Shown one piece after another: positions 23,634-58,145 of a DNA stretch of 64,000 nt. Origin of the DNA: an uncultured Gemmatimonadales bacterium. Lineage in GTDB: Bacteria; Gemmatimonadota; Gemmatimonadetes; Longimicrobiales; RSA9. The DNA is taken from contig OY970192.1 in the NCBI GenBank assembly GCA_963708135.1, positions 1,280,001-1,344,000 of the forward strand, in the 5' to 3' direction. Position 1 is the stretch's first letter; every line of letters starts with the position of its first letter. The notes beneath the pieces were generated by a model. The model did no database searches. It was not told the DNA's origin and saw nothing but the letters and a program-made list of their open reading frames with translations. A program made the translations under genes and the position numbers.

Positions 23634-24398
23634 ATGACTTACGGGGGATCGATGGGTGCGGAGCCGGCGCGCTGCGTCGCCGAGGCTGACCTGCCGCTCG
23701 CGCTGGATGGCGTGGCGCGGCGCTTTGCCCGGCGCTGGGTGCTGCGCGGCATCCGGCTTTCCGTCGAGCCGGGCGAGGCCGTGGCGCTGATGGGGCGCAA
23801 CGGCAGCGGCAAGACGACGCTGCTCCGGATCGTGTCCACGGCCCTCTCGCCCACGCGGGGCGGCGGCCGGATCTTCGGCCGCGACCTGCTGAGCGAGGGC
23901 GACCGGATCCGCGAGGTGGTGGGCGTGCTCGCCCACTCCGCCGGCCTCTACGAGGACCTCAGCGCCGCCGAGAACCTTCGCTTCGCGCTCCGCATGAACG
24001 GCCTCGCCGCCGACCGGCAGACCATTCTCCGCGTGCTCTCCGAGGTCGGCCTCGCCGGCGAGGTCGATGAGCGCGTGCGCGGCTTCTCGTCCGGCATGCG
24101 ACGCCGGCTCTCGCTCGCTCGCGTGCTGCTCCGGCCCCCCCGACTCCTCCTGCTCGACGAGCCCTACGCCAGCTTCGATGTCGACGGCATCGACCTCGTC
24201 AACGCCTTCGTGCGGCGCGTGGTCGATGGCGGCGGCGCCGCCCTCGTCGCCACGCACGACCTGCGCCGTGCGCTCTCGGTCGTCGACCGCGTCGTCCGCA
24301 TCGAGGACGGCCTCCTCGTCGAGGGCGCCGCGGACACCGCCGAGGACGATGCCTCTCCGGCGGCCGACCCCTTCCTCCTGCAGAGCGAGGGCGTATGA
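23634..24398 (+). CDS. ccmA: Heme ABC exporter ATP-binding protein CcmA
   Basis: GRNGSGKTT, FSSGMRRR, LLDEP; first gene of the ccm cluster. Confidence 0.88.
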   Translation: MTYGGSMGAEPARCVAEADLPLALDGVARRFARRWVLRGIRLSVEPGEAVALMGRNGSGKTTLLRIVSTALSPTRGGGRIFGRDLLSEGDRIREVVGVLAHSAGLYEDLSAAENLRFALRMNGLAADRQTILRVLSEVGLAGEVDERVRGFSSGMRRRLSLARVLLRPPRLLLLDEPYASFDVDGIDLVNAFVRRVVDGGGAALVATHDLRRALSVVDRVVRIEDGLLVEGAADTAEDDASPAADPFLLQSEGV

Positions 24399-25081
24399 GC
24401 GTGCGCGCCGAAATGGCCCGCGTGGGCGCCATCGCGTGGAAGGACCTCACCGCCGAGCGCCGGACCAAGGCCAACTTCAACGCCGTGCTCTTCTTTACGG
24501 CGCTGGTGCTGCTCCTCTTCGGGTTCGCGCTCGGCCCCGACCAGGCCGCGCTCCGCCAGGCCGCCGCCGGCGTGCTCTGGCTCACGATCCTGTTCGGCGG
24601 CGTGCTCTCCTTCAACCGCTCCTACGAGCTCGAGCTCGAGGGTGGCGCCCTCGAGGCGCTCCTGCTCTATCCGGGCGACCGCCGCTCGCTCTTCCTCGGC
24701 AAGCTGCTCGCGAACCTCGCCTTCCTCGCGCTCGTCGAGGTCGTCCTGGTCCCGCTGGCCTCCGTGCTCTACGATCTGCCCCTGCTCGCGCCCGGCGGCG
24801 GCCTCCTGCTCGTCATGGTGCTCGGTACCGTCGGCTTCGTCACCCTCGGGACCTTCTACGCCGCCATGGCCAGCCGCATCCGTGCCCGGGAGGTCATGCT
24901 CCCGCTGCTGCTCTTCCCGATGCTCGTGCCGCTCCTGCTCTGCTCCGTGGAGGCCACCAAGGCCCTCCTCATCGGTGACATCATGGGCGACAGCGGCGCC
25001 TGGATCCGACTGCTCACCGTGTTCGACCTGATCTTCCTGGTGGCGTCCTTCTTCGCCTTCGGCTATGTGATCGAGGAGTAG
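24395..25081 (+). CDS. ccmB: Heme exporter permease CcmB
   Basis: WKDL..E.R, LFLGKL, LPLLLFP; about six TM segments. Confidence 0.88.
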   Translation: MSVRAEMARVGAIAWKDLTAERRTKANFNAVLFFTALVLLLFGFALGPDQAALRQAAAGVLWLTILFGGVLSFNRSYELELEGGALEALLLYPGDRRSLFLGKLLANLAFLALVEVVLVPLASVLYDLPLLAPGGGLLLVMVLGTVGFVTLGTFYAAMASRIRAREVMLPLLLFPMLVPLLLCSVEATKALLIGDIMGDSGAWIRLLTVFDLIFLVASFFAFGYVIEE

Positions 25082-25086
25082 TTTCA

Positions 25087-25812
25087 ATGGCTTCCACTAC
25101 CATCGACACCGCCTCGCTCCGGCCTCGCTGGCTGCGCATCTGGGGGTGGGCTTCGCTGGCCTTCTTCGTCTTCAGCCAGGTAACGGCGGTCGTCATCTCG
25201 CCGCCCGACCGTGACATGGGAGACCTCGAGAAGATCCTCTACGTCCACGTGCCCGCCGCCTGGATCAGCTTCGTCGCCTATGGCATCGTTTTCGTCTGCA
25301 GCGTCCTCTACCTCTGGAAGCGCGAGATCCGCTACGACCTCGCCGCCGCCGCCGCGGCCGAGGTCGGCGTCGTGCTCACCGGCCTCACGCTCGGCCTCGG
25401 CAGCATCTGGGGACGGCCCACCTGGGGCGTCTGGTGGACCTGGGATGCCCGCCTCACCAGCACCGCCGTGCTCTTCCTCATGTACGTCGGCTATCTCGCG
25501 CTGCGCGCCTTCACCGAGGACGAGCACCGCCGCGCCCGCTGGAGCGCCGCCGTCGGGCTCCTCGGCTTTCTGAACGTCTACATCGTCTACATGTCCGTCC
25601 GCTGGTGGCGTACCCTCCACCAGCTCCAGTCCGCCCCGTCCACGGTCGACCCGCGCTACGGCATCGGACTGCGCCTCAATGCGTTCGCGTTCACCTTCCT
25701 CCTCGTCTACTTCGTCGTCGCACGCTACCGGGTGGCCCGCCTCGAGCGGGAGATCGAAGCCCGGGCGGAGGAGGCGGCACTCGCTCCCGAAGGAGTCGGC
25801 GCCCATGCCTAA
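25087..25812 (+). CDS. ccmC: Heme exporter/chaperone loader CcmC
   Basis: YVHVP, WGRPTWGVWWTWDARLT (WWD domain), WWRTLHQ. Confidence 0.92.
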   Translation: MASTTIDTASLRPRWLRIWGWASLAFFVFSQVTAVVISPPDRDMGDLEKILYVHVPAAWISFVAYGIVFVCSVLYLWKREIRYDLAAAAAAEVGVVLTGLTLGLGSIWGRPTWGVWWTWDARLTSTAVLFLMYVGYLALRAFTEDEHRRARWSAAVGLLGFLNVYIVYMSVRWWRTLHQLQSAPSTVDPRYGIGLRLNAFAFTFLLVYFVVARYRVARLEREIEARAEEAALAPEGVGAHA

Positions 25813-25939
25813 CAACTGGGATTTCGTCGGGGCCGCCTACGGCCTCACCTGGATCGTCCTGGCCGGCTATACGCTCTACCTCGTTCGCCGCAGGCACGCA
25901 GTCGAAGAGCTGGCAAGAAGGGAGGAGGAGGCGCGATGA
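25805..25939 (+). CDS. ccmD: CcmD-like small membrane protein, 44 aa
   Basis: MPNNWDFVGAAYGLTWIVL... single TM plus charged tail; lies between ccmC and ccmE, overlapping both. Confidence 0.7.
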   Translation: MPNNWDFVGAAYGLTWIVLAGYTLYLVRRRHAVEELARREEEAR

Positions 25940-26385
25940 AACGCAAGAAGCTGATCCCGGCCCTCGTCGGCGCCGTGATCGTGCTCGGTGGGTTCGGCTA
26001 CCTCATCTACGGCGGGATCGACAACAACCTCGTCTATTTCCTCACGCCCACCGAGCTCCAGGCCAAGGGCGCGAAGGCGATCGGCGCTCCCGTACGCCTC
26101 GGCGGCCAGGTCGTACCGGGTAGCGTCGTCTGGAACGCCCAGGCCCTCGACCTCCAGTTCCGCATGACCGACGGCAAGGATGCCGTCAAGGTGCATTCCA
26201 CCAGCACCCCGCCGCAGATGTTCCGCGACGGAATGGGCGTCGTCGTCGAGGGCAAGCTCGCCGCCGACGGCGTCTTCGAGGCCAGCAACCTCATGGTCAA
26301 GCACTCCAACGAGTACCAACCTCCTCGCGCCGGCCACGAGCCCGAGGAGATGTACAAGACGCTCATCAAGGATCCGAAGAGCTGA
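25936..26385 (+). CDS. ccmE: Heme chaperone CcmE
   Basis: VYFLTP, RLGGQV, FRDG.GVVVEG, KHSNEY (HxxxY heme site). Confidence 0.92.
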   Translation: MKRKKLIPALVGAVIVLGGFGYLIYGGIDNNLVYFLTPTELQAKGAKAIGAPVRLGGQVVPGSVVWNAQALDLQFRMTDGKDAVKVHSTSTPPQMFRDGMGVVVEGKLAADGVFEASNLMVKHSNEYQPPRAGHEPEEMYKTLIKDPKS

Positions 26386-26491: not shown

Positions 26492-26992
26492 GTGGACTGG
26501 GTGCACGTACATCTCATGGTGAACCACTTTCCGATCATCCTCGGCATGGTCGCGGCCGCGGGCGTCCTGGCCGCCCTCTTCACGCGCCGAGAGTTCTTCT
26601 GGATCTACGCCTGCGTGACTGCGATCCTCGCGGCCATCGCGGCGCCCGTGGCCTACATCACCGGCGATCAGGCCGGGGACGTCGCCCGCCACTTCTGGTA
26701 CGTCGACCGACCCGAGATCCACGACCACGAAGAGGCGGCCCTCTACACGCTCATCATCCTCATCGCCGCCGGCCTCGCCGCCATCTGGGCGCTCTACCGC
26801 CGCAACCCCCGCATCCGCGCCCTCTTCGCCGTCCTCATCATCGCAGGTGCCCTTTCCGGCGGCTTCACCGGCCTCGAGGGCGGCCATATCGTCCACACCA
26901 GTCCCAAGCTCGAGCCCAAGGTACGGCCGGACTCGACGGCGCCCGTCACACCAGCCGCCCCGCCGGCCGCCACGGCTCCCGGAAGGGGTTGA
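26492..26992 (+). CDS. DUF2231-like four-TM His-containing membrane protein
   Basis: HLMVNHFPI, TGDQA, HDHEE, GGHIVH. Start is GTG 26492 or ATG 26516. Confidence 0.6.
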   Translation: MDWVHVHLMVNHFPIILGMVAAAGVLAALFTRREFFWIYACVTAILAAIAAPVAYITGDQAGDVARHFWYVDRPEIHDHEEAALYTLIILIAAGLAAIWALYRRNPRIRALFAVLIIAGALSGGFTGLEGGHIVHTSPKLEPKVRPDSTAPVTPAAPPAATAPGRG

Positions 26993-27251: not shown

Positions 27252-27266
27252 TGGCCCACCGCTTGC
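27252..27266 (+). promoter_or_regulatory. Candidate sigma54 -24/-12 promoter for the first multiheme operon
   Basis: TGGCCCACCGCTTGC has exact GG-N10-GC spacing with TGGC and TTGC. Confidence 0.5.
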
Positions 27267-27602: not shown

Positions 27603-29045
27603 ATGGAAAGCCTGAAGCGGCATCTCGGAATCCTGATGGCGATAGTTCTGACGGCGGGAGCGGTTGCGGGGTGTGTGGACGAGAAGAAGGTTCTCGAGCC
27701 GAGCCCGAGCTTCGAGACGCCGCCCGCGGCGGCGGAGGGCTTCCTCGGTTACGCCGACACCGTGGCGGGGAAGCCGGTATGCGGCAACTGCCACGCCGGC
27801 AAGTACGCGGAGTGGAAGCAGACGAAGCACGCGCAGGCGTGGGCGGACCTGCAGGCCAGCGGCCATGCCACGGCGGCGTGCGAGGGCTGCCACACGGTGG
27901 GCGCGTACGGGAACCTGGTCGTGGACTCGATGGTGGGGTGGACGGCGACGCACGACGCGCGCTATCACGACGTGCAGTGCGAGAGCTGCCATGGGCCGGG
28001 GATGACGCACGTGACGAACGCGGACGCGAGCCAGCCGCTGGCGTCGATGCTGGTCGGGGTCGGCCTGAAGAGCGGCTGCGGGGAGTGCCACTCGGGGACG
28101 CACAACCCCTTCCTCGAGGAGTGGTCGCAGTCGGCGCACGGACTCGTGCCCCACCAGTCGGGTCACGCCGGCCAGGCGGAGCCCTGCATTTCCTGCCACA
28201 CGGGGGACGTCGCGCTGCAGTCGTGGGGTGAGGATCCGAACTACCTGGAAAAGGACAGTCTGCAGGCGGTGGCCGGCCACCTGCCCATCAGCTGCCCGAT
28301 CTGCCACGATCCGCACAACGCGACGATCGACAAGCAGCTGCGCTTCCCGATCGATGTCGCCAGCGTGGACGACAACCTGTGTATGAAGTGCCACCACTAT
28401 CGGGGCACGCCGGACCCGACGTCGTCGCACGGCCCGATGTCGCCGCAGGGCCCGCTTCTGCTCGGACTGGCGGGCTGGCGCTCGCCGGACTTCGGGCCGA
28501 CCCAGGATCTAAAGGGAACGCACGGCTCTTCGGGCAACAAGGACCTGTGCGTCACCTGTCACGTGGCCCGGATGGACGTGACGGACGCGAGCGGCACCGT
28601 CGTCTTCAATTCGACCGGCCATCTCTTCGTGGCCACGCCCTGCCTCGACGCGGCCGGCAAGCCTACGGCGGCCGAGGACTGCGAGACCAGCCAGCGCAGC
28701 TTTGCGGCCTGCGCGCAGAGCGGCTGCCACGGAAGTCCCGACGCCGCGCAGTCGGCGGAGAGTGTGGCGCGCACCCGCATCGCCGACCTGGTGGCCGAGG
28801 TCAACGCGATGGTGAGCAGGGCGCCCGCGTCGGAGTTCAACACGAGCGACCCGACCTCGACCGCGGAGGGCGCGAAGTTCAACGCCGACCTCGGAGCCAT
28901 GGCGGGATCTCCGATCCACAATCCGTTCCTGATGGAGGCGCTGCTGACGGCCAGCATCAAGCAGCTCCAGAAGGACTACGGCATCGTGCCCACGGCCGGT
29001 GTCACCCTGAACAACGTCCTTCCCCGCGAGGTCATGTCGAAGTAG
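27603..29045 (+). CDS. Multiheme c-type cytochrome lipoprotein (8 CxxCH + 1 CxxxxCH), copy 1
   Basis: Lipobox VAGC; CGNCH, CEGCH, CESCH, CGECH, CISCH, CPICH, CMKCH, CVTCH, CAQSGCH; helical C-terminus. Confidence 0.9.
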   Translation: MESLKRHLGILMAIVLTAGAVAGCVDEKKVLEPSPSFETPPAAAEGFLGYADTVAGKPVCGNCHAGKYAEWKQTKHAQAWADLQASGHATAACEGCHTVGAYGNLVVDSMVGWTATHDARYHDVQCESCHGPGMTHVTNADASQPLASMLVGVGLKSGCGECHSGTHNPFLEEWSQSAHGLVPHQSGHAGQAEPCISCHTGDVALQSWGEDPNYLEKDSLQAVAGHLPISCPICHDPHNATIDKQLRFPIDVASVDDNLCMKCHHYRGTPDPTSSHGPMSPQGPLLLGLAGWRSPDFGPTQDLKGTHGSSGNKDLCVTCHVARMDVTDASGTVVFNSTGHLFVATPCLDAAGKPTAAEDCETSQRSFAACAQSGCHGSPDAAQSAESVARTRIADLVAEVNAMVSRAPASEFNTSDPTSTAEGAKFNADLGAMAGSPIHNPFLMEALLTASIKQLQKDYGIVPTAGVTLNNVLPREVMSK

Positions 29046-29080: not shown

Positions 29081-29935
29081 ATGTCGAATCGAGTGCTGGG
29101 GTGGCTGGCGCTGGCCACCGTGACCGCCGCGTGCGGGGGGGACGCGCTCCCCCCCGCGCCGACGGCCACCACGGACAGCGTGGCCGTGGCGAGGATCCTC
29201 GCCACGGCGCCGCTCGGCGGCAGCACCCGTCCCTCCTCCGTGGCGGCCACGCCGGCGGACAGCGCCTCGAAGGCGGCGCCGCTCTCACCCACGGCGTTCC
29301 GCCATGAGAAGCACCGCGGCCTGGTCTGCCAGCGCTGTCACCCGGCGGTCCCCGGGCACGCGCGGCACACCAACGTCGCCTGCACGTCGTGTCACCCGGC
29401 GGTGCCGGTCACCGGGCCCGCGCCGGGCCCGGCCGAGTGCGGCGGGTGCCATCACGCGGCCGTGCAGGGCCGCGCGTGCACGAGCTGCCACGATCCCACG
29501 GCGCGTGGCACGCTGGCGCTACAGCGCTCCTGGGATCTTTCGGTGTGGGGCGCCCCACGTCTTCGCGACGTGAAGTTCGACCATCGCTGGCACGAGGCGC
29601 GGCCGTGCGGCGCCTGCCACACCGACCGGCCCTCCCTCGTCTCCACGCGTGCGTGCGCCTCCTGCCACGAGCACCACGAGGGCCGCGCGGATTGCCGCAT
29701 CTGCCACGTGGCCCCGCCCGTGGGCGTGCATACCCTGGCCGCCCACCAGGGCTGTGCGGGGCAGGGCTGCCACCGGGACCCGCCGGTCCGGAAGGCGACG
29801 CTCTCCCGCGACGAATGCCTGCTTTGCCATGCCGACCGCGAGCGCCACCAGCCCGGACGCGCCTGCGCGCAATGCCACATGCCCCAGGCGGCGGCGCGCG
29901 CGCCGCCGGCGGGGCGGGAGCCCACGTCCCCATGA
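29081..29935 (+). CDS. Decaheme cytochrome c lipoprotein (9 CxxCH + 1 CxxxxCH)
   Basis: Lipobox TAAC-GG; c3/c7-like FxHxxH motifs; GGAG RBS. Homologous to the C-terminal half of 50087-51925. Confidence 0.85.
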   Translation: MSNRVLGWLALATVTAACGGDALPPAPTATTDSVAVARILATAPLGGSTRPSSVAATPADSASKAAPLSPTAFRHEKHRGLVCQRCHPAVPGHARHTNVACTSCHPAVPVTGPAPGPAECGGCHHAAVQGRACTSCHDPTARGTLALQRSWDLSVWGAPRLRDVKFDHRWHEARPCGACHTDRPSLVSTRACASCHEHHEGRADCRICHVAPPVGVHTLAAHQGCAGQGCHRDPPVRKATLSRDECLLCHADRERHQPGRACAQCHMPQAAARAPPAGREPTSP

Positions 29936-38071: not shown

Positions 38072-38436
38072 CCACTGCGGGGGCACTGCGGGTGGGGCGG
38101 GGTGGCGGGTGCGTCGGCAGGGCGGGCGGCCGGGCGCCGGGCGCCGGGCGGACGGGGCTCCCGCCGGGCGGATGGCGCGGTCTGCGGCCGGCGCCGGATC
38201 GGGAACGGTGGGGCCGCGCTCGCAAGCGTTCCCCACCCGCCGTTCTCACCACCGGTTGTAAACTGGACAGGAGCGACGGTTTGAAAATGGACACTCCCGT
38301 CGAGGAGGTGAAGTCGAGGGCCGAAGCGCCGCAGGCGCGGGAGGCCACGTTGACAGGGAGATGAACGAAGCCCTCGCAGTGCGTAGAATCGGGGCGTCAG
38401 CTTAAAGACGTTCCCGAGCACCGGAGGGCTCCGCCA

Positions 38437-44218: not shown

Positions 44219-44222
<4 letters not shown>
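42912..44222 (-). CDS. 11-heme cytochrome c with C-terminal TM helix (CbcL c-domain-like)
   Basis: Signal peptide; 11 CxxCH; DSYHG, HGILP..DPRS, C-terminal FMSLLLVGVLSVFGLHTLLW. Confidence 0.85.
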
Positions 44223-45589
<1,367 letters not shown>

Positions 45590-49202: not shown

Positions 49203-49579
49203 GGCGTCTTCGTCGTATCGCCCGACGCCGGGTGCACCAGCGTCGCTCCCGGGGCCAGCGCCCGCGCCTTTCGCATGGCCGAATCCGCCGCCACCGTGTC
49301 GCCCAGCGCCGACTCGGCCATGTAGACGCCGAACCAGCTCGCCGGTGTGTGCGGCGCATCCTTCACGGCCTGCTGGTAGTGCTTCAGCGCCGTCTGATAG
49401 TCCTTCGCGCGATAGGCCGTGTTGCCGCTATCCAGCTGCGCCTGGGCCGCTGGCGCCAGCTTCGGCGCGGTCGTCATCTGGCTCGCGCCCAACGGCTGCT
49501 TCGGCGCTTCATCCTTCTTGCACCCTACCAGCAGCGCGCCCGCTGCCAGAATCGGGACCACGCCCTTGAAGATCCGCAT
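49199..49579 (-). CDS. TPR-repeat lipoprotein
   Basis: Lipobox LVGC-KK; GNTAYRAKDYQTALKHYQQAV...P...WFG. Confidence 0.75.
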   Translation of the reverse strand: MRIFKGVVPILAAGALLVGCKKDEAPKQPLGASQMTTAPKLAPAAQAQLDSGNTAYRAKDYQTALKHYQQAVKDAPHTPASWFGVYMAESALGDTVAADSAMRKARALAPGATLVHPASGDTTKTP

Positions 49580-49957
49580 CAATCCCTCTTGGTCGTCTGT
49601 CGTTCGTCTCGAGGCGCGCGACACCGGGACCCCCCGGCCCCGTCGAGCCCGTCTGCCGGGGCCCGGTCACGCGCCGCTCCCCCCGGCAGCATTCATGCCC
49701 CATGCTGTCCCGTTCCGTCCCGCCCGCGCCGGCGCCGCCGAATCGGCCGCCGCGTCCTGATCTGCCAGCCCGCGGCGGGCACTTTCCGGGCTGCGCCATC
49801 CACTCCCTGGCGGCGCGCCGCCGGATCGCCCATTCTTTCCGGTCATGTCGCGCAAAGCCCCAACCAACGTTTACCTCCGCGGCAGAATGTCGCAAGGTTC
49901 CGTTCCGCCCGCGGCGAATCTTGGCGCCGGGCAAGGTCTTTCGCGCGCGAGGCGGAC

Positions 49958-50086: not shown

Positions 50087-51925
50087 GTGAGTGGCCCCTC
50101 TGTTTGGGAGCGGCTGCGCGGGTGGGCCTTCGGGATCTCGCGGGGCTGGCTGATTGCGGCAGCGGCGGCGGGCGCGGTCATCGTCATCGTCGGCGGAGCG
50201 CTGCTGTTCCGGACGTACAACTACGTCCAGTACAACAACAACTTCTGTCTGCAGTGCCACCTCATGGCGGGGCCGTACGCCCGCTTCCAGCAGAGTGCCC
50301 ACCGCGGCCTGGGCTGCAAGGCGTGTCACCATCCGACGCCGATCGCGCGGGCCAAGATGGGCCTGACGCAGATCATCAAGCAGCCGACCAGCATTGAAGC
50401 CCATGCCGAGGTACCCAACTCGGCGTGCGAGAAGTGCCACGTGGAAGGGAACCCCAGGGAATGGACGCTGATCTCGGCGTCGGTCGGCCACCGGATCCAC
50501 TTCGAGTCGAAGGACACGGCGCTGAAGGGCCTGGCCTGCGTGCGCTGCCACTCCGTGTCGATTCACGAGTTCGCGCCCGTGGATCGCACGTGCGCGCAGG
50601 CGGGCTGCCACACGAACACGAAGATCAAGCTCGGCAAGATGGGCCAGCTCACGATCCACTGCGTGGTCTGTCACAACTTCAACAAGCCGGATACGCAGCG
50701 GGTCGGCCCCGATTCGCTGGCGCTGGCGCTCCGCCCGCAGCGGGAGGAATGCCTGAGCTGCCATGCCATGCGGCAGAAGGTCGGCGTGTTCCCCGCCAAC
50801 GAGCCCCACAAGGGCGTGTGTGGCGCGTGTCATGATCCGCACACCCAGTCGACGCCCGCGGAGGCGGTGCAGTCGTGCTCGAACGGCGGCTGCCACGAGC
50901 GGGCGGACACGATCACGCCGGCGCACCGCGGCCTCGAGCCCGGCGTGCTCGAGCGCTGCACGAACTGCCACGTCGCCCACACCTGGAAGCCGAAGGGCCA
51001 GGTGGACGACTGCCGGTCCTGCCACACGAAGATCTTCGAGGCGACGCCGCCCGGCGCGAGCACCCGCGCGGCGCTTCCGCCTCCGCCGCGCGGCCCGGCC
51101 GCGGCCGCCGCCGCGGGATCCGCCGCGGCCGCGGCACCCGCGCAGCCCGGGCGCGGAGCCGCCGAGGTCGGGCCGGCCGGCGAGGCCTCCCTGGGCGCAG
51201 CTCTCCTGCGGCTCGTGGGCGGCGCATCCCACGCCAGGCCCGCCTCCCGGCGGCCGCTCACCCCGGAGCATCCATTCCGCGCCGTCACGCAGGAGCCGCA
51301 GCAGCCCGTGGCTGGAACCGTGGCGCGGTGGGGCGGCCATTTCGACCATCGCACCCACCGGCAGCTCGACTGCCTGCAGTGCCACAGCATGCAGGACACC
51401 CACGGCGCGCTGAAGGTTCGCACGAAGCAGGACTGCGAGTCCTGCCACCACTCCGCGGATCAGAAGCGGCCGTGCGCCAGCTGCCATACGGCGGCCGAGC
51501 TGGGCTGGCAACGACCCGAGAAGGTCGAGGTCCGCACGAGCGTGTCGCGGACGACCACCACCCGGACGTTGCCGTTCCCGCACGCGCGCCACACGTCGCT
51601 CCAGTGCTCGGCGTGCCACGGGCCGCCGCCCACGTACACGCCGCGCGTGGACTGCGAGTCGTGTCACAGCAAGCACCACCAGGCGAACGCCGAGTGCAGG
51701 CTCTGCCACGCCGGGCTGCCGCTCAAGGCGCACACGCGGGCCGCGCACCTGGCGTGCGGCGGTAGCGGGTGCCATCAGGACGCGGCGGTCGCCTCCCTGT
51801 CCTGGTCCCGCGAGGTCTGCCTTGCCTGCCACCAGGACCGGGTGCTGCACGAGCCGGGACTCGCCTGTGAGAGCTGCCACAAGGTCCCGGCCCTCCATTC
51901 AACGACGAAGAGGTCCGCGCCATGA
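50087..51925 (+). CDS. NapC/NirT-like membrane-anchored 20-heme cytochrome (17 CxxCH + 3 CxxxxCH)
   Basis: N-terminal TM, then NNFCLQCHLM...SAH..LGCKACH (NapC/NrfH-like start). An Ala/Pro linker separates the 11-heme and 9-heme halves. Confidence 0.85.
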   Translation: MSGPSVWERLRGWAFGISRGWLIAAAAAGAVIVIVGGALLFRTYNYVQYNNNFCLQCHLMAGPYARFQQSAHRGLGCKACHHPTPIARAKMGLTQIIKQPTSIEAHAEVPNSACEKCHVEGNPREWTLISASVGHRIHFESKDTALKGLACVRCHSVSIHEFAPVDRTCAQAGCHTNTKIKLGKMGQLTIHCVVCHNFNKPDTQRVGPDSLALALRPQREECLSCHAMRQKVGVFPANEPHKGVCGACHDPHTQSTPAEAVQSCSNGGCHERADTITPAHRGLEPGVLERCTNCHVAHTWKPKGQVDDCRSCHTKIFEATPPGASTRAALPPPPRGPAAAAAAGSAAAAAPAQPGRGAAEVGPAGEASLGAALLRLVGGASHARPASRRPLTPEHPFRAVTQEPQQPVAGTVARWGGHFDHRTHRQLDCLQCHSMQDTHGALKVRTKQDCESCHHSADQKRPCASCHTAAELGWQRPEKVEVRTSVSRTTTTRTLPFPHARHTSLQCSACHGPPPTYTPRVDCESCHSKHHQANAECRLCHAGLPLKAHTRAAHLACGGSGCHQDAAVASLSWSREVCLACHQDRVLHEPGLACESCHKVPALHSTTKRSAP

Positions 51926-53385
51926 GAGCCGGATGCATCCTGATCCTGCTCGCGGCGTTTACGGCTGGTTCCTTGTCGGCGCAGGGGTTTCGGATCACGG
52001 GGGTCTCGACCGCGCAGTATATCGATGCGCGGCCTCTGGCCTCCGACAGTGTCCCCATCTCCCAGGCCCTCGGGACCGGCACGCTGCGGCAGACCGCCGA
52101 CGGCACGATCGTCAGCTGCACCAGTGCGGGATCGTACTGCTACTTCCAGCGCTCGGGTGCCACGCTCGCGGCCGTGCCCCTGATCCAGGATCTGGAGGTC
52201 AGCGCCTGGGGGCTCGCCACCGGGCTGCGCTTCTACGCGGATCTGCGCGGCCGCGCCGCGGCTGGCGATGCCGCCAGCTACTGGCCCCGCGCCGGTGATG
52301 CGTTCGACGCCCTCGCCGCCTACCTCGAGCTCGACCGCACCCGCTACCGGGTCCGGGTCGGACGCCAGTGGATGACCTCGGGGCTCGGCCTCTACAACTT
52401 CGATGGCGGCGACCTCGTCGTTCGCCCCCTGACCGGGGTCTCCCTCGAGGGCTACGGCGGGTGGAGCCTGGCCAACGGCCTCGACGAGTCCTACACCAGC
52501 AACGCCATCTCGGCCGTCGAGCCCTTTGCCCCGGACGAGGGCGCCTACATCCTGGGCGCCCAGCTTCACGTGCGTCCCACGCCGCGCTTCTCCGCGAGCG
52601 CTCTCTATCAGCGCGAGATCCGGAGGGACCGGGCGGGCCTCTACTCGGAGCGCGTCGCCGCGGACGCCCGGCTGCTCGTGCGCGGCTTCACGCTGGACGG
52701 CGCGCTTCAGGCGGACCTCGCCTCCGGCGACGTCAACGAGGGCCGCCTGCGCGTCCGCCTCCCGAGCCTCGCCGGGCTCGCGCCCACGCTCCAGGTCCGC
52801 CACTACCAGCCGTTCTTCGAGCTGTGGACCATCTGGGGCGCGTTCTCTCCCGTCGGCTTCGACGAGGCCACGGCGACCCTCGACTGGGCGGCCATGAACG
52901 GCCGCCTCGCCCTCGCGCTGCACGGCGGCCGCCGCCGTTACGGCGACACCGGCACCGGGGTGGAGTTCGCGCCGCTCCGCAAGGAGGGCTGGACCGCCGG
53001 TGGCGACCTCACCCTGCGGCCGGCCAGCGGCTGGACCGCCCTGGGCAGCTACGACGCCGACATCGGCTTCGGCGCGGCCTCGACCAACGAGACCGTCTCG
53101 CTCCGGCGTGAGCTCGGCGCGGTGGGCTACCTCGGAGTGACCGGGCTGGCGTTCCAGAACGCCTACGAGTTCCAGGTCGGCGAAGGGCGCGTGTGGGGTG
53201 GGGGAGTGACGGCCGGCGTCCGGCTGACGGATGCCGCGCGCGTCGATGGCAACATCTACAGCTACGTGCACCACGACCGCGGCAATGCGGCCGTGGACTG
53301 GACGCAGATGCGCGGACAGCTCCAGCTGTCGTGGTCCGTCGGCGCCGATCCCGGAATGCGGCGGCTGAAGGAGGTGGGGCCGTGA
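51922..53385 (+). CDS. Putative outer-membrane beta-barrel protein (copy 2)
   Basis: Signal peptide ending SA-Q; paralogue of 29932-31443 (QDLxVSAWG, YLELDR, EGYGGWSL, AVEPFAPD, AGLYSERVA, FELWTIWGAF). Confidence 0.7.
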   Translation: MRAGCILILLAAFTAGSLSAQGFRITGVSTAQYIDARPLASDSVPISQALGTGTLRQTADGTIVSCTSAGSYCYFQRSGATLAAVPLIQDLEVSAWGLATGLRFYADLRGRAAAGDAASYWPRAGDAFDALAAYLELDRTRYRVRVGRQWMTSGLGLYNFDGGDLVVRPLTGVSLEGYGGWSLANGLDESYTSNAISAVEPFAPDEGAYILGAQLHVRPTPRFSASALYQREIRRDRAGLYSERVAADARLLVRGFTLDGALQADLASGDVNEGRLRVRLPSLAGLAPTLQVRHYQPFFELWTIWGAFSPVGFDEATATLDWAAMNGRLALALHGGRRRYGDTGTGVEFAPLRKEGWTAGGDLTLRPASGWTALGSYDADIGFGAASTNETVSLRRELGAVGYLGVTGLAFQNAYEFQVGEGRVWGGGVTAGVRLTDAARVDGNIYSYVHHDRGNAAVDWTQMRGQLQLSWSVGADPGMRRLKEVGP

Positions 53386-54869
53386 GGACCCGTCTCTTCG
53401 CCGCGGCCCTCATGGTCGCGGCCACCGCCAGCGGCCTCTGGGCCGTCGCCTCGCGGGAGCGTGGCTTCCCGCACGAAAAGCACGCGCGGCTGTTCCCGGT
53501 GTGCACCGGCTGCCACACGGGAATCGCCGCCGGGGATACGGCGAGCTTCTACCCGGATGCCGCCTTCTGCGCCCGCTGCCATGATGGCAAGCGCGAGCCG
53601 ACCGTCGACTGGACCGGCCCTCACCGGCGGCCGACCAACCTGGCCTTCTCGCACCCGGACCACTTCCAGCGCACCGCTGCGCAGGGCGTGACGCCCGATT
53701 GCCAGACGTGCCACGGCGTCCCTGGCGCCACTGTGCCCATGGCCGTGGAGGAGGCCACGCCGCAGCAATGCATCGCCTGCCACACCCACCAGGCGCCGAC
53801 GCACCTCGCCGAGAGCGCCGTCTGCCGGACGTGTCACGTCCCCGTGGCCAGCGCGAGCGGCCTCGACACGGCGGCCATCGCGGCCTTCCCGCGGCCCGCC
53901 ACCCACACGGCCGCGGACTTCCTCCAGACCCACGGGAAGGGCGTCGGCGCCGCCCAGGCGCAGGCACGCTGCGCCATCTGCCACGCCCGCCAGAGCTGCG
54001 AGCGCTGCCATCTCAACGCCGGATCGGTGGCGGCCATCGCTGCGCTCCAGCCCGATCCCCGCATCGCGGCGCTCGTGGCCGCGAAGAGTGCACGCTACCC
54101 GGAGCCGGCCAGCCACCGCAGCCCCGACTGGAAGCTCGCCCACGGCGCGCGCGCCCGGGCAGGCATCGCGACGTGCGCGAACTGTCACTCCCGGGCGGGC
54201 TGCACCACCTGTCACATCGGGGGCACGGCCGCCCAGGTCATTGCCGCGCTCCCGGCGCCCCGCCCCGGCGGACCGGCCGGCGCGCTCGCCGGCCGGCGCT
54301 ACGCCGCCCGCGAGCCGATCACCCCTGGTGCGCCCCTGTCCAGCGCCGCGCTGCAGGGCGCCGGTGGCACGCGCATGCACCCCGCCGACTTCGCCACCAC
54401 GCACGGCACGGCGGCCGCGGCGGGCCAGCCGAAGTGCTCGAGCTGCCACGAGCAGGCCTACTGCCAGAAGTGCCACGCGGCACCCTCGCGGCCGGGATTC
54501 CACCCTCCGGACTTCATGGCGCGCCACGGCGCGCAGGCGTTCTCGAGCCAGACCGACTGCATGACCTGCCACAACCGCCAGGCCTTCTGCAAGACGTGCC
54601 ACGAGAACTCCCGGATCGCCGCGGGCGCTACGGCCGGGCCGTTCCACACCAGACAGCCGCTCTGGCTGCTCCAGCACGGGCAGGCGGCCCGCCAGGGGCT
54701 GGAGTCGTGCGCCTCGTGCCACAAGCAGCAGGACTGCCTGCGCTGTCACTCCGACATCGGCTGGGGCGTCAATCCGCACGGGCCCGGTTTCGATGCGGAC
54801 AAGATGGCCGCTCGAAACCAGCTCGTCTGCGCCCGCTGCCACGTGGGCGCCACGCCCCGTAAGCCTTAG
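53382..54869 (+). CDS. 16-heme c-type cytochrome (copy 2)
   Basis: 16 CxxCH collinear with 31443-32909 (FPHxxH, CAICHARxSCERCH, HGQAARQGLE, WGVNPH). GTG start overlaps the barrel stop codon. Confidence 0.88.
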   Translation: MRTRLFAAALMVAATASGLWAVASRERGFPHEKHARLFPVCTGCHTGIAAGDTASFYPDAAFCARCHDGKREPTVDWTGPHRRPTNLAFSHPDHFQRTAAQGVTPDCQTCHGVPGATVPMAVEEATPQQCIACHTHQAPTHLAESAVCRTCHVPVASASGLDTAAIAAFPRPATHTAADFLQTHGKGVGAAQAQARCAICHARQSCERCHLNAGSVAAIAALQPDPRIAALVAAKSARYPEPASHRSPDWKLAHGARARAGIATCANCHSRAGCTTCHIGGTAAQVIAALPAPRPGGPAGALAGRRYAAREPITPGAPLSSAALQGAGGTRMHPADFATTHGTAAAAGQPKCSSCHEQAYCQKCHAAPSRPGFHPPDFMARHGAQAFSSQTDCMTCHNRQAFCKTCHENSRIAAGATAGPFHTRQPLWLLQHGQAARQGLESCASCHKQQDCLRCHSDIGWGVNPHGPGFDADKMAARNQLVCARCHVGATPRKP

Positions 54870-55030: not shown

Positions 55031-57010
55031 TTGATCCGGATCCTGGGGTACACGGCCATCGTCGTGGCGCTCGCCATCTCGACCTTCGGCGCCGTCGCGG
55101 CCGTCGTGGGCGTGCGGCGCCGCCAGGGCGCGCTGATCCACAGCGCGCAAACCGCCGCGTTCGTCAACTTCGGCCTCATGAGCCTCGCGAATCTCGCGAT
55201 GATCTACGCGCTCGTGACGCACGACTTCAGCATCTCGTACGTCGCGCAGGTGGGCAGCCGCGAGACGCCGCTCTTCTTTACGGTGATCTCCCTCTGGGGC
55301 GCCCTCGAGGGCTCCATCCTCTTCTGGGGCTGGATCCTGTCCGGCTACACCGCGGCGGTCGTCTTCTTCACTCGCGGCAAGCTCGGCTCCCTCGGCGTCT
55401 ACGCCACGGCGACGATGCTCACCGTGGGCGCCTTCTTCTACCTGCTCCTGGTCGGCCCCGCAAACCCGTACCACGCCGTCTTCCCCGTGCCCGCCGACGG
55501 GCCCGGCCCGAACGCGTTACTGCAGAATCATCCGCTCATGGCCGTCCATCCGCCCTTCCTGTACATGGGCTACGTGGGCATGACCGTGCCGTTCGCCTTC
55601 GCCATCGGCGCGCTGCTCTCCGGCAAGCTCGATGACACCTGGATGCGCGTGACCCGACGCTGGACCATGATGGCGTGGATCTTCCTCTCGCTCGCCATCA
55701 TCGCCGGCATGTGGTGGTCCTACGACGTGCTCGGTTGGGGCGGCTACTGGGCGTGGGACCCGGTGGAGAACGCCTCCTTCATGCCCTGGCTGACCGCCAC
55801 GGCCTTCCTCCATTCCGTCATGGTGCAGGAGCGCCGCGGGATGCTCCGCGTCTGGAACGTGAGCCTCGTCGTGGCGACGTTCGTGCTCACGATCCTCGGC
55901 ACGTTCCTCACCCGCAGCGGCGTCCTCTCCTCCGTCCACGCCTTCACCGAGGGGACCATCGGCTTCTACTTCCTCGGCTTCATCGCGCTGGTGCTGCTCT
56001 TCTCGATGGCGGTGCTCGCCGGCCGCAGCAGCGAGCTCCACAGCCAGGGACAGCTCGACCGCATGCTCTCGCGCGAGACCGTCTTCCTGCTCAACAACCT
56101 GCTGCTCACCGCCTTCTGCTTCACGGTGCTGCTCGGCACGCTCTTCCCCCTCCTCGCCGAGGCGCTGCGCGGCGTCAAGGTCAGTGTGGGCGCCCCGTTC
56201 TTCAATAAGATGACCGTGCCGCTCGCCGTCGGCCTGCTCTTCCTGCTCGGCGTGGGCCCCGTCCTCCCCTGGCGCGGCGGAAAGGCCGAATACCTCAGAA
56301 AGCAGTTCCTCGTGCCCGCTCTCGCGGCCCTCTTCGTGGCCGGTGCGAGCATCATCGGCGGGGTGCGCAACGTCTACACGGTCCTGGCCTTCACCTTCGG
56401 CGCCTTCGCCCTCGTCGCCAACCTCGAGCAGTTCGTGTCCGGCGCCGGCGCGCGCATGCGCGCTCACCATGAGGCGCCGCTCCTCGCCCTCGGACGGCTC
56501 GTCGCCGCGAATCGGCGCCGCTACGGCGGCTACATCGCACACATCGGCGTGATCACCGTCGCCATCGGCATCGCCGCCTCCTCGACCTTCCGCGCCGAGC
56601 GCGAGACCACGCTCAAGCCCGGCCAGAGCGTCTCCGTGCGCGGCTACACCGTTCGCTTTGACGGGCTCTGGGCCAAGGACGAGCCCCAGCGCTTCGTCGT
56701 CGGCGCCACCATGAGCGCCCTCGGCGCCGACCAGCAGCCGTACGCGCAGATGGAGCCGCGCCTCAACTTCTACGGCGGCCGCAGCGAGCCGATCACCACG
56801 CCCGCCGTCCGCAGCCGGCCCGACAACGATCTCTACATCAACCTGCTCGCCTTCGAGCGGGACGGCTCTTCCGCCACGGTCCACGTCATCGTCGAGCCGC
56901 TCGTCTACTGGATGTGGCTCGGCGGGCTCATCGTCGCTTTCGGCGGCCTCGTCGGCATCGTGCCTCTGCCGCGCCGCCGCCCGGAGCGGAGGAAGGTCTA
57001 CCAGGTATGA
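55031..57010 (+). CDS. ccmF: Cytochrome c heme lyase CcmF
   Basis: EGSILFW, HPP.LY.GY, WGGYWAWDPVENAS.MPW, HS, RSG...SVHAF. TTG start after GGAGG. Confidence 0.95.
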   Translation: MIRILGYTAIVVALAISTFGAVAAVVGVRRRQGALIHSAQTAAFVNFGLMSLANLAMIYALVTHDFSISYVAQVGSRETPLFFTVISLWGALEGSILFWGWILSGYTAAVVFFTRGKLGSLGVYATATMLTVGAFFYLLLVGPANPYHAVFPVPADGPGPNALLQNHPLMAVHPPFLYMGYVGMTVPFAFAIGALLSGKLDDTWMRVTRRWTMMAWIFLSLAIIAGMWWSYDVLGWGGYWAWDPVENASFMPWLTATAFLHSVMVQERRGMLRVWNVSLVVATFVLTILGTFLTRSGVLSSVHAFTEGTIGFYFLGFIALVLLFSMAVLAGRSSELHSQGQLDRMLSRETVFLLNNLLLTAFCFTVLLGTLFPLLAEALRGVKVSVGAPFFNKMTVPLAVGLLFLLGVGPVLPWRGGKAEYLRKQFLVPALAALFVAGASIIGGVRNVYTVLAFTFGAFALVANLEQFVSGAGARMRAHHEAPLLALGRLVAANRRRYGGYIAHIGVITVAIGIAASSTFRAERETTLKPGQSVSVRGYTVRFDGLWAKDEPQRFVVGATMSALGADQQPYAQMEPRLNFYGGRSEPITTPAVRSRPDNDLYINLLAFERDGSSATVHVIVEPLVYWMWLGGLIVAFGGLVGIVPLPRRRPERRKVYQV

Positions 57011-57630
57011 ACTGGAAGCGCGCCGGTATCGGGATCGGAGCGGCCATTCCCGTGGTCGCGCTCCTCTCCTTCGGCCTCACCCGCGACCCGTCTCTCATTC
57101 CTTCCCCGCTGCCCGGGAAGGCGGCGCCCACGTTCGCCTTGAGGACCATGGACGCGGGCGACAGCATCCGGCTCGCCGACCTCCACGGCCAGGTCGTCGT
57201 CCTCAACTTCTGGGCCTCCTGGTGCCTGGCGTGCCGTGACGAGCACGCCACCCTCGCCGAGGCGGCCGCCCTCTACCAGCCCCTCGGGGTCCGCTTCTTC
57301 GGCGTCCTCTACGACGACTCGCCCGGCAATGGCAAGGCTTACATCCAGGAGATGGGCGGACAGGGCTACCCGACGCTGCTCGACCCCGAGACACGCACCG
57401 CCATCAGCTACGGCCTCTACGGCGTTCCCGAGACCTTCTTCATCGCCCGCGACGGCCGCGTCGCCTACAAGCAGATCGGGCCCGTCAGCCTCGACGGCAT
57501 GAGAAAGATCCTCGACCCGCTCCTTGCCGAGAAGGCGCCCCCCGCAGCCAGCGGCCGCGAGATCTCCCGCAGCCCCGCCCCCGACCGCCGCCTCGCCCGG
57601 CAGGGAGCGGGACGTCAGGAGTCACGATGA
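57007..57630 (+). CDS. ccmG: CcmG/DsbE (TlpA-family) thiol-disulfide oxidoreductase
   Basis: NFWASWCLAC, YGVPETFFI; lies between ccmF and ccmH. Confidence 0.85.
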   Translation: MNWKRAGIGIGAAIPVVALLSFGLTRDPSLIPSPLPGKAAPTFALRTMDAGDSIRLADLHGQVVVLNFWASWCLACRDEHATLAEAAALYQPLGVRFFGVLYDDSPGNGKAYIQEMGGQGYPTLLDPETRTAISYGLYGVPETFFIARDGRVAYKQIGPVSLDGMRKILDPLLAEKAPPAASGREISRSPAPDRRLARQGAGRQESR

Positions 57631-58145
57631 ACCCCTTTGCGATCCTCGCCCTCGCCCTCGCCCTCGCGCCCGCGCCACCTCAGAGGCCCGACACCGGCAT
57701 GATCGGCGTCGTGCCCGCCGCCGCCGCCGCGCCCGGCTCGCGTCAGGACAGCATCCTCAATGCGCGCACCAAGGAGGTCGCCTCCCAGCTGCGCTGTCCC
57801 GTCTGTCAGGGACTCTCCCTCCAGGACTCGCCTTCCGACCTCGCCCGCCAGATGCGCGCGCTCGTCCATGACCAGCTCGCCGCCGGGAAGAGCCCCGACG
57901 AGGTCAAGCAGTACTTCGTCAGCAAGTACGGCGAGTGGATCCTCCTGCAGCCGCAGGCCCACGGCTTCAACCTCGTCGCCTACCTGCTGCCCGCCCTCGT
58001 CCTCCTCGCCGGCGCGGCCCTCGTCTGGACCGCCGCCCGCCGCTGGGTCCGCAGCCCCGAGGGACCCGAAGGGCCAGCCGAGGATCCGGGCCGCGATGCG
58101 ACAGCACCCCCCGAGGAATCGGGCGAAACAGCCTCGAGCCGCTGA
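57627..58145 (+). CDS. ccmH: Cytochrome c biogenesis protein CcmH
   Basis: LRCPVCQGLS..DS, YGEWIL, C-terminal TM helix. Confidence 0.9.
   Translation: MNPFAILALALALAPAPPQRPDTGMIGVVPAAAAAPGSRQDSILNARTKEVASQLRCPVCQGLSLQDSPSDLARQMRALVHDQLAAGKSPDEVKQYFVSKYGEWILLQPQAHGFNLVAYLLPALVLLAGAALVWTAARRWVRSPEGPEGPAEDPGRDATAPPEESGETASSR

Follow-up and report, generated by a model that had tools for sequence, protein, structure and literature searches.

A candidate pair of paralogous porin-cytochrome conduits in a multiheme cytochrome locus of a Gemmatimonadota bacterium

A locus rich in multiheme c-type cytochromes was analyzed in contig OY970192.1 (assembly GCA_963708135.1) of an uncultured Gemmatimonadales bacterium. 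The stretch studied, of 64,000 nucleotides, is referred to here as the window, and positions are given in its numbering unless the genome is named. With a probability of about 70%, the locus encodes two ancient paralogous porin-cytochrome conduits across the outer membrane, built from parts specific to Gemmatimonadota. In the pair that was modeled, the prediction places a 16-heme cytochrome within a large barrel, and quinol-type modules are encoded in the same locus. Both results support the core inference of an earlier note on this DNA, in which an envelope-crossing conduit had been proposed.

The locus extends from the start of ccmA (23634) to the stop of ccmH (58145). Genes were called by third-position GC in this window of 71% GC, and their starts were refined afterwards (Table 1). 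A six-frame scan for heme motifs, taken as CxxCH plus Cx4CH, identified nine multiheme genes with 9, 10, 16, 9, 9, 13, 11, 20 and 16 motifs and one monoheme gene. The sum over these ten genes is 114, and the counts of the earlier note proved exact. Beyond the cytochrome genes, the window has just two open reading frames (ORFs) with a motif, one in each. In the whole genome (5.45 Mb), 14 ORFs carry at least three CxxCH motifs; nine of them lie in the locus, including all of those with nine or more hemes. The density of heme motifs is far above chance. Pfam and NCBIfam scans, with an AlphaFold2 (AF2) model for one barrel, also recovered the other parts that had been described, namely the genes of two barrels, three modules of the quinol type, a sigma54 two-component pair and ccmABCDE with ccmFGH.

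The cytochrome and barrel genes form two paralogous sets. Module 1 (27603-35826) comprises g7, g8, g9, g10 and g11 followed by a Rieske protein and a cytochrome b. Module 2 comprises g14 and, at a distance, g23, g24 and g25; g14 was assigned to it because its counterpart in relatives lies directly upstream of the 20-heme gene. The paralogs are 46% identical for the barrels (g9/g24), 43% for the 16-heme cytochromes (g10/g25), 54% for the nonahemes (g7/g14) and 38% for residues 419-598 of g23 against g8. An IS21 element and a minus-strand block separate the modules, the block containing a tetratricopeptide repeat (TPR) lipoprotein, the monoheme cytochrome, a polytopic protein, the kinase, the regulator and a third quinol-type module.

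Neither barrel matched a Pfam family, or an NCBIfam family at E ≤ 0.01, including the MtrB/PioB model TIGR03509. A search of the organism's own genome with TIGR03509 was empty but uninformative, since control genomes gave no match either. The barrel profile found no sequence match at E ≤ 10 in the PDB, which includes MtrB. From an alignment of 30 sequences, AF2 folded g24 into an all-beta barrel with some 24 strands (pLDDT 81, pTM 0.74), and the protein consists of the barrel alone with no plug domain. Foldseek placed the 24-strand usher FimD first (TMq 0.49); ushers, AlgE and porins preceded MtrB (6r2q_B), which appeared at rank 32 (E 9.3e-8, TMq 0.41). In VIA, 22-strand TonB-dependent receptor barrels reached Z 18-20 over about 360 residues and ushers a Z of about 18, while MtrB was absent among the 50 matches listed. 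On these models, the g9/g24 family is one of large outer-membrane barrels. The earlier note had named the failure of these genes to model as such barrels as an outcome that would speak against its proposal; AF2, Foldseek and VIA gave the opposite result.

More than 500 homologs of g24 were found, and every named one is a "hypothetical protein" from Gemmatimonadota. A profile search of 1.84 billion proteins returned 529 cluster representatives at E ≤ 0.001. In a protein atlas, the surroundings of g24 contain only unannotated Gemmatimonadota clusters, and the nearest clusters that bear a Pfam domain are outer-membrane barrel families. The genome itself has two copies of the family, both in this locus.

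One genome per species was scanned, which gave 404 relatives of the barrel, and the best 80 loci were analyzed. All of these are labeled Gemmatimonadota save two, which are labeled "uncultured bacterium". The Gemmatimonadota-like host suspected in the earlier note is borne out, every named relative being from this phylum. In 78 of the 80 loci a 16-heme gene lies behind the barrel gene, and in the other two the contig ends within 570 nt of the barrel (tblastn). In an alignment of 30 sequences, every one of the 16 CxxCH motifs of g25 is invariant, and so are 16 additional histidines, a pattern that bis-His hemes would be expected to give. Among the 72 complete orthologs, 65 have 16 motifs and none has a lipobox. 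Named matches to the 16-heme family are also all from Gemmatimonadota. The barrel and the 16-heme cytochrome are two new, unannotated families; they are uncharacterized, and the system that they would form is read as a novel version of the porin-cytochrome kind.

The barrel and the 16-heme cytochrome were chosen for complex modeling because they are the invariant core of the synteny. The mature forms of g24 and g25 were modeled together from custom alignments and without hemes. The complex scored 0.70, compared with 0.00 for the best of three controls. The score mark is attained by 116 of 157 solved complexes and by 2 of 215 mismatched pairs, counts that hold roughly here since custom alignments were used. 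Across the runs, contact agreement was at least 59% and the pLDDT of the partner at least 72. In the predicted interface, residues 334-486 of g25, with their seven heme motifs, meet residues from almost all of the barrel strands. Contacts are closest at barrel residues 297-311. This segment is the invariant LWTIWGAF loop, which is disordered in the monomer model. As modeled, the arrangement is that of a porin-cytochrome system, a multiheme cytochrome being housed in an adjacent large barrel.

The models also suggest an orientation. In outer-membrane barrels the periplasmic turns are usually short and the outer loops long, and by this rule the LWTIWGAF loop is on the outer side. From this topology and the list of contacts, we infer that the C-terminus of g25 reaches the outer mouth, while the N-terminal nine hemes extend into the periplasm. 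MtrA is oriented in the same way inside MtrB, with its C-terminal end outermost.

The candidate surface components are the nonaheme lipoproteins g7 and g14, which are proposed from their sequences to be the surface cytochromes of the two conduits. Sequence searches of the PDB with g7 returned 6qvm_A (E 1e-10) and 6i5b_A, which is OcwA (E 7.2e-8). With nine motifs and significant sequence similarity, g7 was classed as OcwA-like. Its residues 59-131 match the Pfam family Cytochrome_C554, which is consistent with the OcwA fold, an arrangement of a c554-like tetraheme and an NrfA-like pentaheme; the AF2 model (pLDDT 55) was too poor for comparison. The lipobox cysteine, Cys24, is invariant in 30 sequences. 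Of 69 complete nonaheme orthologs, 63 have nine motifs and 57 a lipobox.

OcwA of Thermincola is described as a nonaheme terminal reductase of the cell surface that also reduces soluble electron shuttles and oxyanions (PMC6703420), and Gavrilov et al. place it in a subclade of Gram-negative nonahemes (PMC7829351). Both g7 and g14 share with OcwA of Thermincola potens (6I5B) the nine heme motifs, and they are similar in sequence to OcwA and to 6QVM. The latter is a multiheme cytochrome of 681 residues and, judged only by this matching length, is probably OmhA of Carboxydothermus ferrireducens. The setting is different: OcwA and 6QVM come from monoderm bacteria and have no barrel partner, whereas g7 and g14 are lipoproteins of a diderm encoded in a barrel operon.

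A third OcwA-like nonaheme gene, about 50-55% identical to g7 and g14, was found roughly 200 kb upstream (genome 1076817-1080546, minus strand). It is split by a near-identical IS21 copy flanked by an 8-bp target duplication.

A 10-heme module recurs in both sets. Ten motifs were counted in 23 of the 37 orthologs of g8, and most of the orthologs have a lipoprotein-type N-terminus followed by a low-complexity tether. The corresponding domain of g23 is part of a fusion, in which an N-terminal transmembrane (TM) segment (residues 15-44) is followed by a multiheme domain that weakly resembles NrfH, some 90 residues of Pro/Ala-rich linker (approximately 320-400) and the g8-like 10-heme domain. Twenty motifs are found in 19 of its 23 orthologs. 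The position of the g8-like domain behind an inner-membrane anchor and this linker speaks for a periplasmic site of action of the 10-heme module.

The Rieske protein (g12) and the cytochrome b (g13) at the end of module 1 together provide the Rieske 2Fe-2S domain and the N- and C-terminal cytochrome b domains of a bc1/b6f-type complex. Scores against NCBIfam models stayed below the cut-offs, with 79 bits for g12 on the b6f-type Rieske model and, for g13, 226 bits on b6 and 207.8 bits on ExtP. A monoheme c1 or cytochrome f was not found as the third redox subunit; the adjoining gene encodes the anchored 9-heme g11, which from its sequence is proposed to be the c-subunit of the complex. Nine motifs are present in 23 of 24 orthologs of g11 and a C-terminal TM segment in 18 of the 24. 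No second copy of g13 was found in the genome at E ≤ 1e-5.

Homologs of the partner proteins in the 80 loci were counted as 43 for the 10-heme cytochrome, 27 for the 20-heme protein, 25 for g11, 24 for the Rieske protein and 25 for the cytochrome b. Two types of operon emerged. Type I contains, in order, a g20-like gene in some cases, the 9-heme lipoprotein, the 10-heme cytochrome, the barrel, the 16-heme cytochrome, the anchored 9-heme cytochrome, the Rieske protein and the cytochrome b. Type II contains ccmABCEFGH, the 9-heme lipoprotein, the 20-heme protein, the barrel, the 16-heme cytochrome and a TPR lipoprotein, with ccmF, ccmG and ccmH found in 18 loci each. A homolog of the small TPR lipoprotein g22 lies beside the 16-heme gene in 22 of the 80 loci, and g22 is a conserved partner of module 2.

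A quick maximum-likelihood tree (IQ-TREE) was calculated from 76 complete barrels and the two of the window, incomplete ORFs being excluded. The deepest split has a support of 99 on either side, and g9 and g24 fall on opposite sides of it. All 20 Rieske-linked barrels group on one side, together with g9, and 21 of the 23 barrels linked to a 20-heme gene on the other. The two modules are ancient paralogs, and not the product of a recent duplication, because their barrels straddle this split. Of 301 genomes sampled across the phylum, 135 have the barrel, as do 70 of 127 genera, nearly all of the same class and mostly in one copy. Three weak matches (E 2.6e-7 to 4.9e-4) lie outside the class in this sample. 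The reach of the family beyond the phylum was judged from named matches, the protein atlas and the phylum sample.

All hemes would be attached by a single maturation system. The System I (Ccm) set is complete from A to H and is split into ccmABCDE (23634-26385) and ccmFGH (55031-58145), with about 29 kb of cytochrome genes between the two parts. It is the only complete System I in the genome. Related loci have a contiguous ccm operon in 15-18 cases, preceding type II. The ccm genes and g13 serve the whole cell, since no second copies of ccmB, ccmC, ccmE, full-length ccmF or g13 are present.

Taken together, these parts suggest the following mechanism. The C-terminal seven-heme segment of the 16-heme cytochrome would fill the plug-less barrel of about 24 strands, and the N-terminal nine hemes would project into the periplasm. 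On the outside, the OcwA-like nonaheme lipoprotein would act as the surface cytochrome, while on the inside a tethered 10-heme module would deliver the electrons. In module 1, quinol would be oxidized by the Rieske/cytochrome b complex with its membrane-anchored 9-heme c-subunit g11. In module 2, the 10-heme module is fused by a flexible linker to the membrane-anchored, weakly NrfH-like domain, and the resulting 20-heme protein would take both roles. Module 3, with an FdnI-like cytochrome b, an anchored 11-heme cytochrome and a 13-heme lipoprotein, is encoded on the strand of the sigma54 pair, downstream of it, and probably provides an additional entry for quinol. The hemes would be attached by the Ccm system that flanks the locus. 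The analysis shows the gene content, the conservation and synteny of the families, the fold of the barrel and its predicted complex with the 16-heme cytochrome; that the lipoprotein sits at the surface, in what order electrons are handed over and which way they flow are the parts of this mechanism that we infer.

The proposed conduits share with MtrCAB/CymA of Shewanella, MtoAB, PioAB and DmsEF a quinol-oxidizing inner-membrane cytochrome, a multiheme cytochrome threaded through a barrel and an outer lipoprotein multiheme cytochrome. The components differ. The barrel has about 24 strands in 487 residues, compared with a chain of 649 residues for MtrB, to which it has no family relationship. 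The insert has 16 hemes where MtrA has 10. The surface cytochrome is OcwA-like rather than MtrC-like, and one of the entry modules is of the Rieske/cytochrome b type. Against the MtrA/DmsE model TIGR03508 (cut-off 192.2 bits), g17 scored 57.9, g11 47.1, g14 40.1, g7 28.1 and g23 20.5 bits, all below the cut-off, while the 16-heme proteins and g8 had no match.

The Geobacter systems OmbB-OmaB-OmcB, ExtABCD and ExtHIJKL/ExtMNOPQS, compared by description, likewise bring together a porin, a multiheme cytochrome of the periplasm and multiheme cytochromes that are lipoproteins. According to the NCBIfam descriptions of ExtKL, ExtM, ExtN, ExtO and ExtP, the Ext operon unites multiheme cytochromes with a b6-like cytochrome b, as is the case here. 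In Geobacter, the ExtMNOPQS operon adjoins a porin cluster. A true Rieske protein accompanies the cytochrome b at the present locus, unlike in Geobacter Ext. Scores on the Ext equivalog models fell short of the cut-offs (ExtP 207.8 vs 290; ExtM 20.7 vs 800; ExtKL 14.9 vs 250; ExtN and ExtO about 19 vs 200), as did those on the GSU2203-family decaheme model (32-39 bits vs 325). In the earlier note the components could not be matched to the MtrA/MtrB/OmcB design. This holds for the barrel and the 16-heme cytochrome, which match no Mtr, Pio or Ext model, but less so for the 9-heme lipoproteins, which are related to OcwA, and for g13, which resembles b6 and ExtP. The components also did not match a characterized periplasm-only complex; such a match was what the note had listed as unfavorable to its proposal.

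Other candidate systems known from genomes were also considered. The porin-cytochrome cluster (PCC) named PCC4 is described as having periplasmic cytochromes of 4, 5 and 10 hemes, an inner-membrane protein with five TM segments and no extracellular cytochrome (He et al. 2017, PMC5566968). PCC3 and PCC4 were rejected as the same system on the published descriptions available, since their composition differs from that of this locus, with its cytochromes of 9, 10 or 20 and 16 hemes and its lipoprotein cytochromes. Like the present locus, PCC3 and PCC4 of neutrophilic Fe(II) oxidizers and the 2026 Sterkfontein PCCs are candidates defined from genomes, some of them described with b- or bc-type inner-membrane parts. 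The Sterkfontein work, a 2026 metagenome survey of karst (PMC13264449), reports PCCs with petB/petC, including those of groups 2 and 3 in SAW209, a metagenome-assembled genome (MAG) of Gemmatimonadales; the other three MAGs with such PCCs are Acidobacteriota. In this survey, group 2 is defined as a decaheme next to a porin, and group 3 includes multiheme cytochromes whose motifs exceed 20. The group 2 and 3 PCCs of SAW209 probably correspond to the two module types described here. In its available sections, the survey neither defines a family nor gives a fold, a model of a complex or a distribution across the phylum. The word "new" in the earlier note thus remains apt for the families, which are uncharacterized, but not for the clusters, as they are pictured in one Gemmatimonadales MAG in the sections available (PMC13264449).

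The FeGenie iron-reduction models include DFE_0461-0465. These genes of D. ferrophilus, described as encoding cytochromes and an NHL-repeat protein, were rejected as the same system because no porin is associated with them; in the account available, porin-cytochrome genes are not apparent in that genome (PMC9769857). A FeGenie study of marine Gemmatimonadota mentions, in the parts accessible, only Cyc2, the widely annotated DFE_461-465 and, in three cases, an MtrABC operon (PMC11316326). In the literature searched, which did not extend to subscription-only papers, neither this system nor any mechanism for extracellular electron exchange in Gemmatimonadota was found described.

Several points weigh against the conduit as proposed. 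The structure of MtrCAB has been solved (6R2Q), and the complex score may therefore partly reflect a resemblance that was learned rather than binding between these two proteins. None of the models contains hemes. The poor model of g7 was left out of the fold search, and its OcwA fold is unconfirmed; sequence alone does not tell whether the lipoproteins are exposed at the surface. The likeness of the g23 N-terminus to NrfH is weak, at 27.8 bits with a cut-off of 134. The sigma54-like sites described below are a hint specific to this window, a suitably placed site being present in just two or three of the 80 related loci, and conserved sigma54 promoters were rejected. With regard to outward flow, a missing RuBisCO is compatible with other routes of carbon fixation or with mixotrophy, and the CcoP-like monoheme cytochrome g21 could link to an oxidase. 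In iron oxidizers such as Acidithiobacillus, Rieske/cytochrome b complexes can run in reverse.

An outward flow, in which quinol would supply electrons to extracellular or insoluble acceptors, is favored because RuBisCO is missing, the proposed surface cytochromes have a reductase among their relatives and the edge of the window encodes an uptake-type [NiFe]-hydrogenase. The same hardware operating inward, with electrons taken from Fe(II), Mn(II), reduced humics or cathodes, is considered a minority reading that is unlikely overall. The downhill branch would then lead over the monoheme cytochrome to a terminal oxidase, and the uphill branch through a reversed Rieske/cytochrome b complex. The locus does contain a CcoP-domain monoheme lipoprotein as well as Rieske/cytochrome b genes, and MtoAB and PioAB of iron oxidizers are described as having the same architecture (He et al. 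2017, PMC5566968). The earlier note was right that reduction and oxidation cannot be told apart here, since nothing in the sequence fixes the polarity. Nevertheless, the RuBisCO large subunit was not found in this 97.65%-complete genome, the nonaheme lipoproteins are kin to a terminal reductase of metal reducers, and the nearby uptake hydrogenase suggests that an electron donor is available rather than needed. None of these three points is decisive. An improbable use of the conduit would be the reduction or detoxification at the surface of soluble oxyanions in place of mineral respiration. These could be selenite or tellurite, for which the Geobacter ExtHIJKL/ExtMNOPQS genes are annotated, or nitrite and hydroxylamine, which are substrates of OcwA. 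The 208 bits of g13 on ExtP, a model named for a selenite/tellurite reduction operon, the weak ExtM and ExtKL matches of g11 and g14 and the activity reported for OcwA on oxyanions and soluble shuttles (PMC6703420) are in line with such a use; but every Ext match is below its cut-off, a rhodanese-like or other catalytic partner was not seen among the Pfam matches of the locus, and two conduits of 45-54 hemes each would be a large investment for detoxification.

The least probable alternative is a respiratory network or electron store confined to the periplasm, with the barrels serving alongside as ordinary porins or exporters. Multiheme cytochromes can act as periplasmic capacitors, and the barrel does match many transport barrels in structure. 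An unrelated transport role is nevertheless difficult to reconcile with the adjacency of the barrel and 16-heme genes in 78 of the 80 loci, the predicted complex at 0.70 where the controls gave 0.00, the plug-less barrel whose most conserved loop touches the cytochrome and the fact that the only two barrels of this family in the genome both lie in this locus.

Returning to outward conduits, a more specific joint reading is offered tentatively, and as a whole it is doubtful. Module 2 would be hard-wired: the linker would allow the 20-heme protein to reach the periplasmic end of the 16-heme cytochrome, giving a tethered 36-heme path from a quinol site to the surface with no soluble carrier. Module 1 would couple its conduit to the Q-cycle of the Rieske/cytochrome b complex, so that energy would be conserved at the oxidation of quinol. 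The two modules would then serve acceptors of different potential, as is thought for ImcH and CbcL of Geobacter, and extracellular electron transfer would be common in the phylum.

Table 1. Features of the locus, with window coordinates; bit scores refer to Pfam or NCBIfam models
Feature	Coordinates	Strand	Remarks
ccmA, heme-export ABC ATPase	23634..24398	+	PF00005 103 bits; adjoins ccmB
ccmB	24395..25081	+	PF03379 139 bits; sole genome copy
ccmC	25087..25812	+	PF01578 119 bits; sole genome copy
ccmD, 44 aa, single TM	25805..25939	+	PF04995 26.3 bits (cut-off 25.6)
ccmE	25936..26385	+	PF03100 104 bits; sole genome copy
Small 4-TM membrane protein, weakly DUF2231-like	26492..26992	+	PF09990 21.6 bits, below cut-off; start uncertain
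g7, nonaheme OcwA-like lipoprotein cytochrome, module 1	27603..29045	+	8 CxxCH + 1 Cx4CH; VAGC lipobox
g8, 10-heme cytochrome, lipoprotein-type signal and low-complexity tether, module 1	29081..29935	+	10 motifs; cytochrome c3 and c7 domains
g9, predicted outer-membrane barrel, module 1	29932..31443	+	46% identical to g24; second barrel-profile match in genome, E 1.6e-198
g10, 16-heme cytochrome, proposed barrel insert, module 1	31440..32909	+	16 CxxCH; 43% identical to g25
g11, 9-heme cytochrome, signal peptide and C-terminal TM anchor	32902..34266	+	9 motifs; TM 412-432
g12, Rieske 2Fe-2S subunit	34269..34742	+	PF00355 46.7 bits (cut-off 20.3); PetC TM anchor
g13, cytochrome b, b6 and subunit IV-like fused	34744..35826	+	PF00033 166 bits; PF00032 48.7 bits
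g14, nonaheme OcwA-like lipoprotein cytochrome	36322..37800	+	9 motifs (8 CxxCH + 1 Cx4CH); VTGC lipobox
Intact IS21 element	38244..40615	+	istA 38437-39753 (rve); istB 39750-40520 (IstB 252 bits)
g15, 13-heme lipoprotein cytochrome, module 3	40679..42034	-	12 CxxCH + 1 Cx4CH; LSAC lipobox; c7 and c3 domains
g16, FdnI/b561-like membrane cytochrome b, module 3	42016..42915	-	PF01292 27.9 bits and TIGR01583 33.5 bits, both below cut-off; TM segments
g17, 11-heme cytochrome, C-terminal TM anchor, module 3	42912..44222	-	11 CxxCH; TM about 394-421
g18, sigma54-dependent response regulator	44219..45589	-	PF00158 216 bits; PF00072, PF02954
g19, histidine kinase	45535..47145	-	HisKA, HATPase_c domains
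g20, polytopic membrane protein, possibly Rce1/CPBP-like	47191..48372	-	28 of 30 nearest atlas clusters Rce1-like
g21, monoheme c-type lipoprotein, CcoP-domain-like	48693..49202	-	PF13442 41.8 bits; 1 CxxCH; SGGC lipobox
g22, small TPR lipoprotein	49199..49624	-	TPR matches; LVGC lipobox
g23, 20-heme fusion, module 2	50087..51925	+	17 CxxCH + 3 Cx4CH
g24, predicted outer-membrane barrel, module 2	51922..53385	+	About 24 strands, 487 residues, plug-less; AF2 model
g25, 16-heme cytochrome, module 2	53382..54869	+	16 CxxCH; C-terminal ~150 residues predicted inside barrel
ccmF	55031..57010	+	PF16327 227 bits, PF01578 122 bits; only full-length genome copy
ccmG, thiol-disulfide oxidoreductase	57007..57630	+	AhpC-TSA, Redoxin domains; assigned by position between ccmF and ccmH
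ccmH	57627..58145	+	PF03918 110 bits

The earlier note had described the locus as a self-contained island, a view that was not upheld. GC is 0.67-0.74 across the locus and 0.72 in the genome, the sole Ccm set and the sole g13 of the genome are located here, and the locus joins two operon types that are conserved separately. A horizontally acquired island was rejected because the GC equals that of the genome and the parts are conserved across the class. The ends of the IS21 element were set by comparing three near-identical copies in the genome, which share 2346-2347 of 2348 bases; the third copy is at genome 1824692-1826772. Their target duplications are of 4, 8 and 4 bp, that of the locus copy being CCGT, and the element was classed as IS21. 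It lies between convergent genes and disrupts none. Its own 4-bp duplication in this position is that of a simple insertion, and rearrangement mediated by IS21 was rejected. In the spacer between g14 and IS21, a terminator-like hairpin at 37867-37916 (22-nt arms, 95% complementary) begins 67 nt past the stop codon of g14, and a (GGGTGA) hexamer microsatellite of about eight units occupies 38023-38070.

With respect to regulation, rpoN was found in the genome, and the sigma54 pair neighbors the cluster in 7-8 of the 80 loci. The core TGGC-N7-TTGC, resembling a sigma54 -24/-12 element, occurs three times in the window against 1.74 expected. The sites, at 27252-27266, 35965-35979 and 49958-49972 on the plus strand, each lie upstream of the start of a cytochrome operon (g7, g14 and g23) on the coding strand. 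The polytopic protein g20 has no Pfam or NCBIfam match, and a homolog lies upstream of the g7 orthologs in 15 of the 80 loci.

Among the remaining ORFs, that at 26847-27593 ("g6") was rejected as a gene, owing to its Pro/Arg-rich translation, its atypical codon-position GC and the absence of any family or homolog. None of the 80 related loci has a homolog of the small membrane protein at 26492-26992. Scans of the window for Rfam families and tRNAs were empty. The sequencing runs listed as containing the locus include none of RNA, and in one DNA run from a soil metagenome 0.60 of the sampled words occur. A Rieske paralog elsewhere in the genome (1767130-1767582, 70% identical to g12) was rejected as unrelated to the conduits. 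It has no cytochrome b beside it, and its surroundings encode a histidine kinase and a P-type ATPase-like protein as well as a thioredoxin-like protein and LTXXQ and PCYCGC proteins. A C-terminal fragment of ccmF and ccmG- and ccmH-like genes were detected about 4-5 kb from this orphan Rieske gene (tblastn).

Directly upstream of ccmA, the subunits PntA and PntB of NAD(P) transhydrogenase are encoded at 20561-23435. Immediately past ccmH come another sigma54 response regulator (58377-59786) and, both on the minus strand, a PAS-GAF histidine kinase (59812-61404) and formate-tetrahydrofolate ligase (61426-63378). A HypD ORF (63678-64000) runs off the right edge of the window. It opens a cluster at genome 1343678-1354860, within about 17 kb of ccmH, that encodes HypF, HypB, HypA, a maturation protease and the large and small subunits of a [NiFe]-hydrogenase. 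The small subunit has a Tat-type RRDFL motif, and the cluster is of the uptake type. Hydrogen is thus a possible electron donor for the conduits.

Current annotation with Pfam and NCBIfam leaves the barrel nameless. Gemmatimonadota are among the common phyla of soils and sediments, and the conduit would make them candidates for the redox cycling of iron, manganese and humics during wet-dry or oxic-anoxic shifts. If confirmed, the link between a porin-cytochrome conduit and a Rieske/cytochrome b complex would represent an unusual form of energy conservation in extracellular respiration. If the joint reading of the two modules is true, extracellular electron transfer, possibly fueled by H2, would be common in a major soil phylum whose members are usually seen as aerobic heterotrophs.

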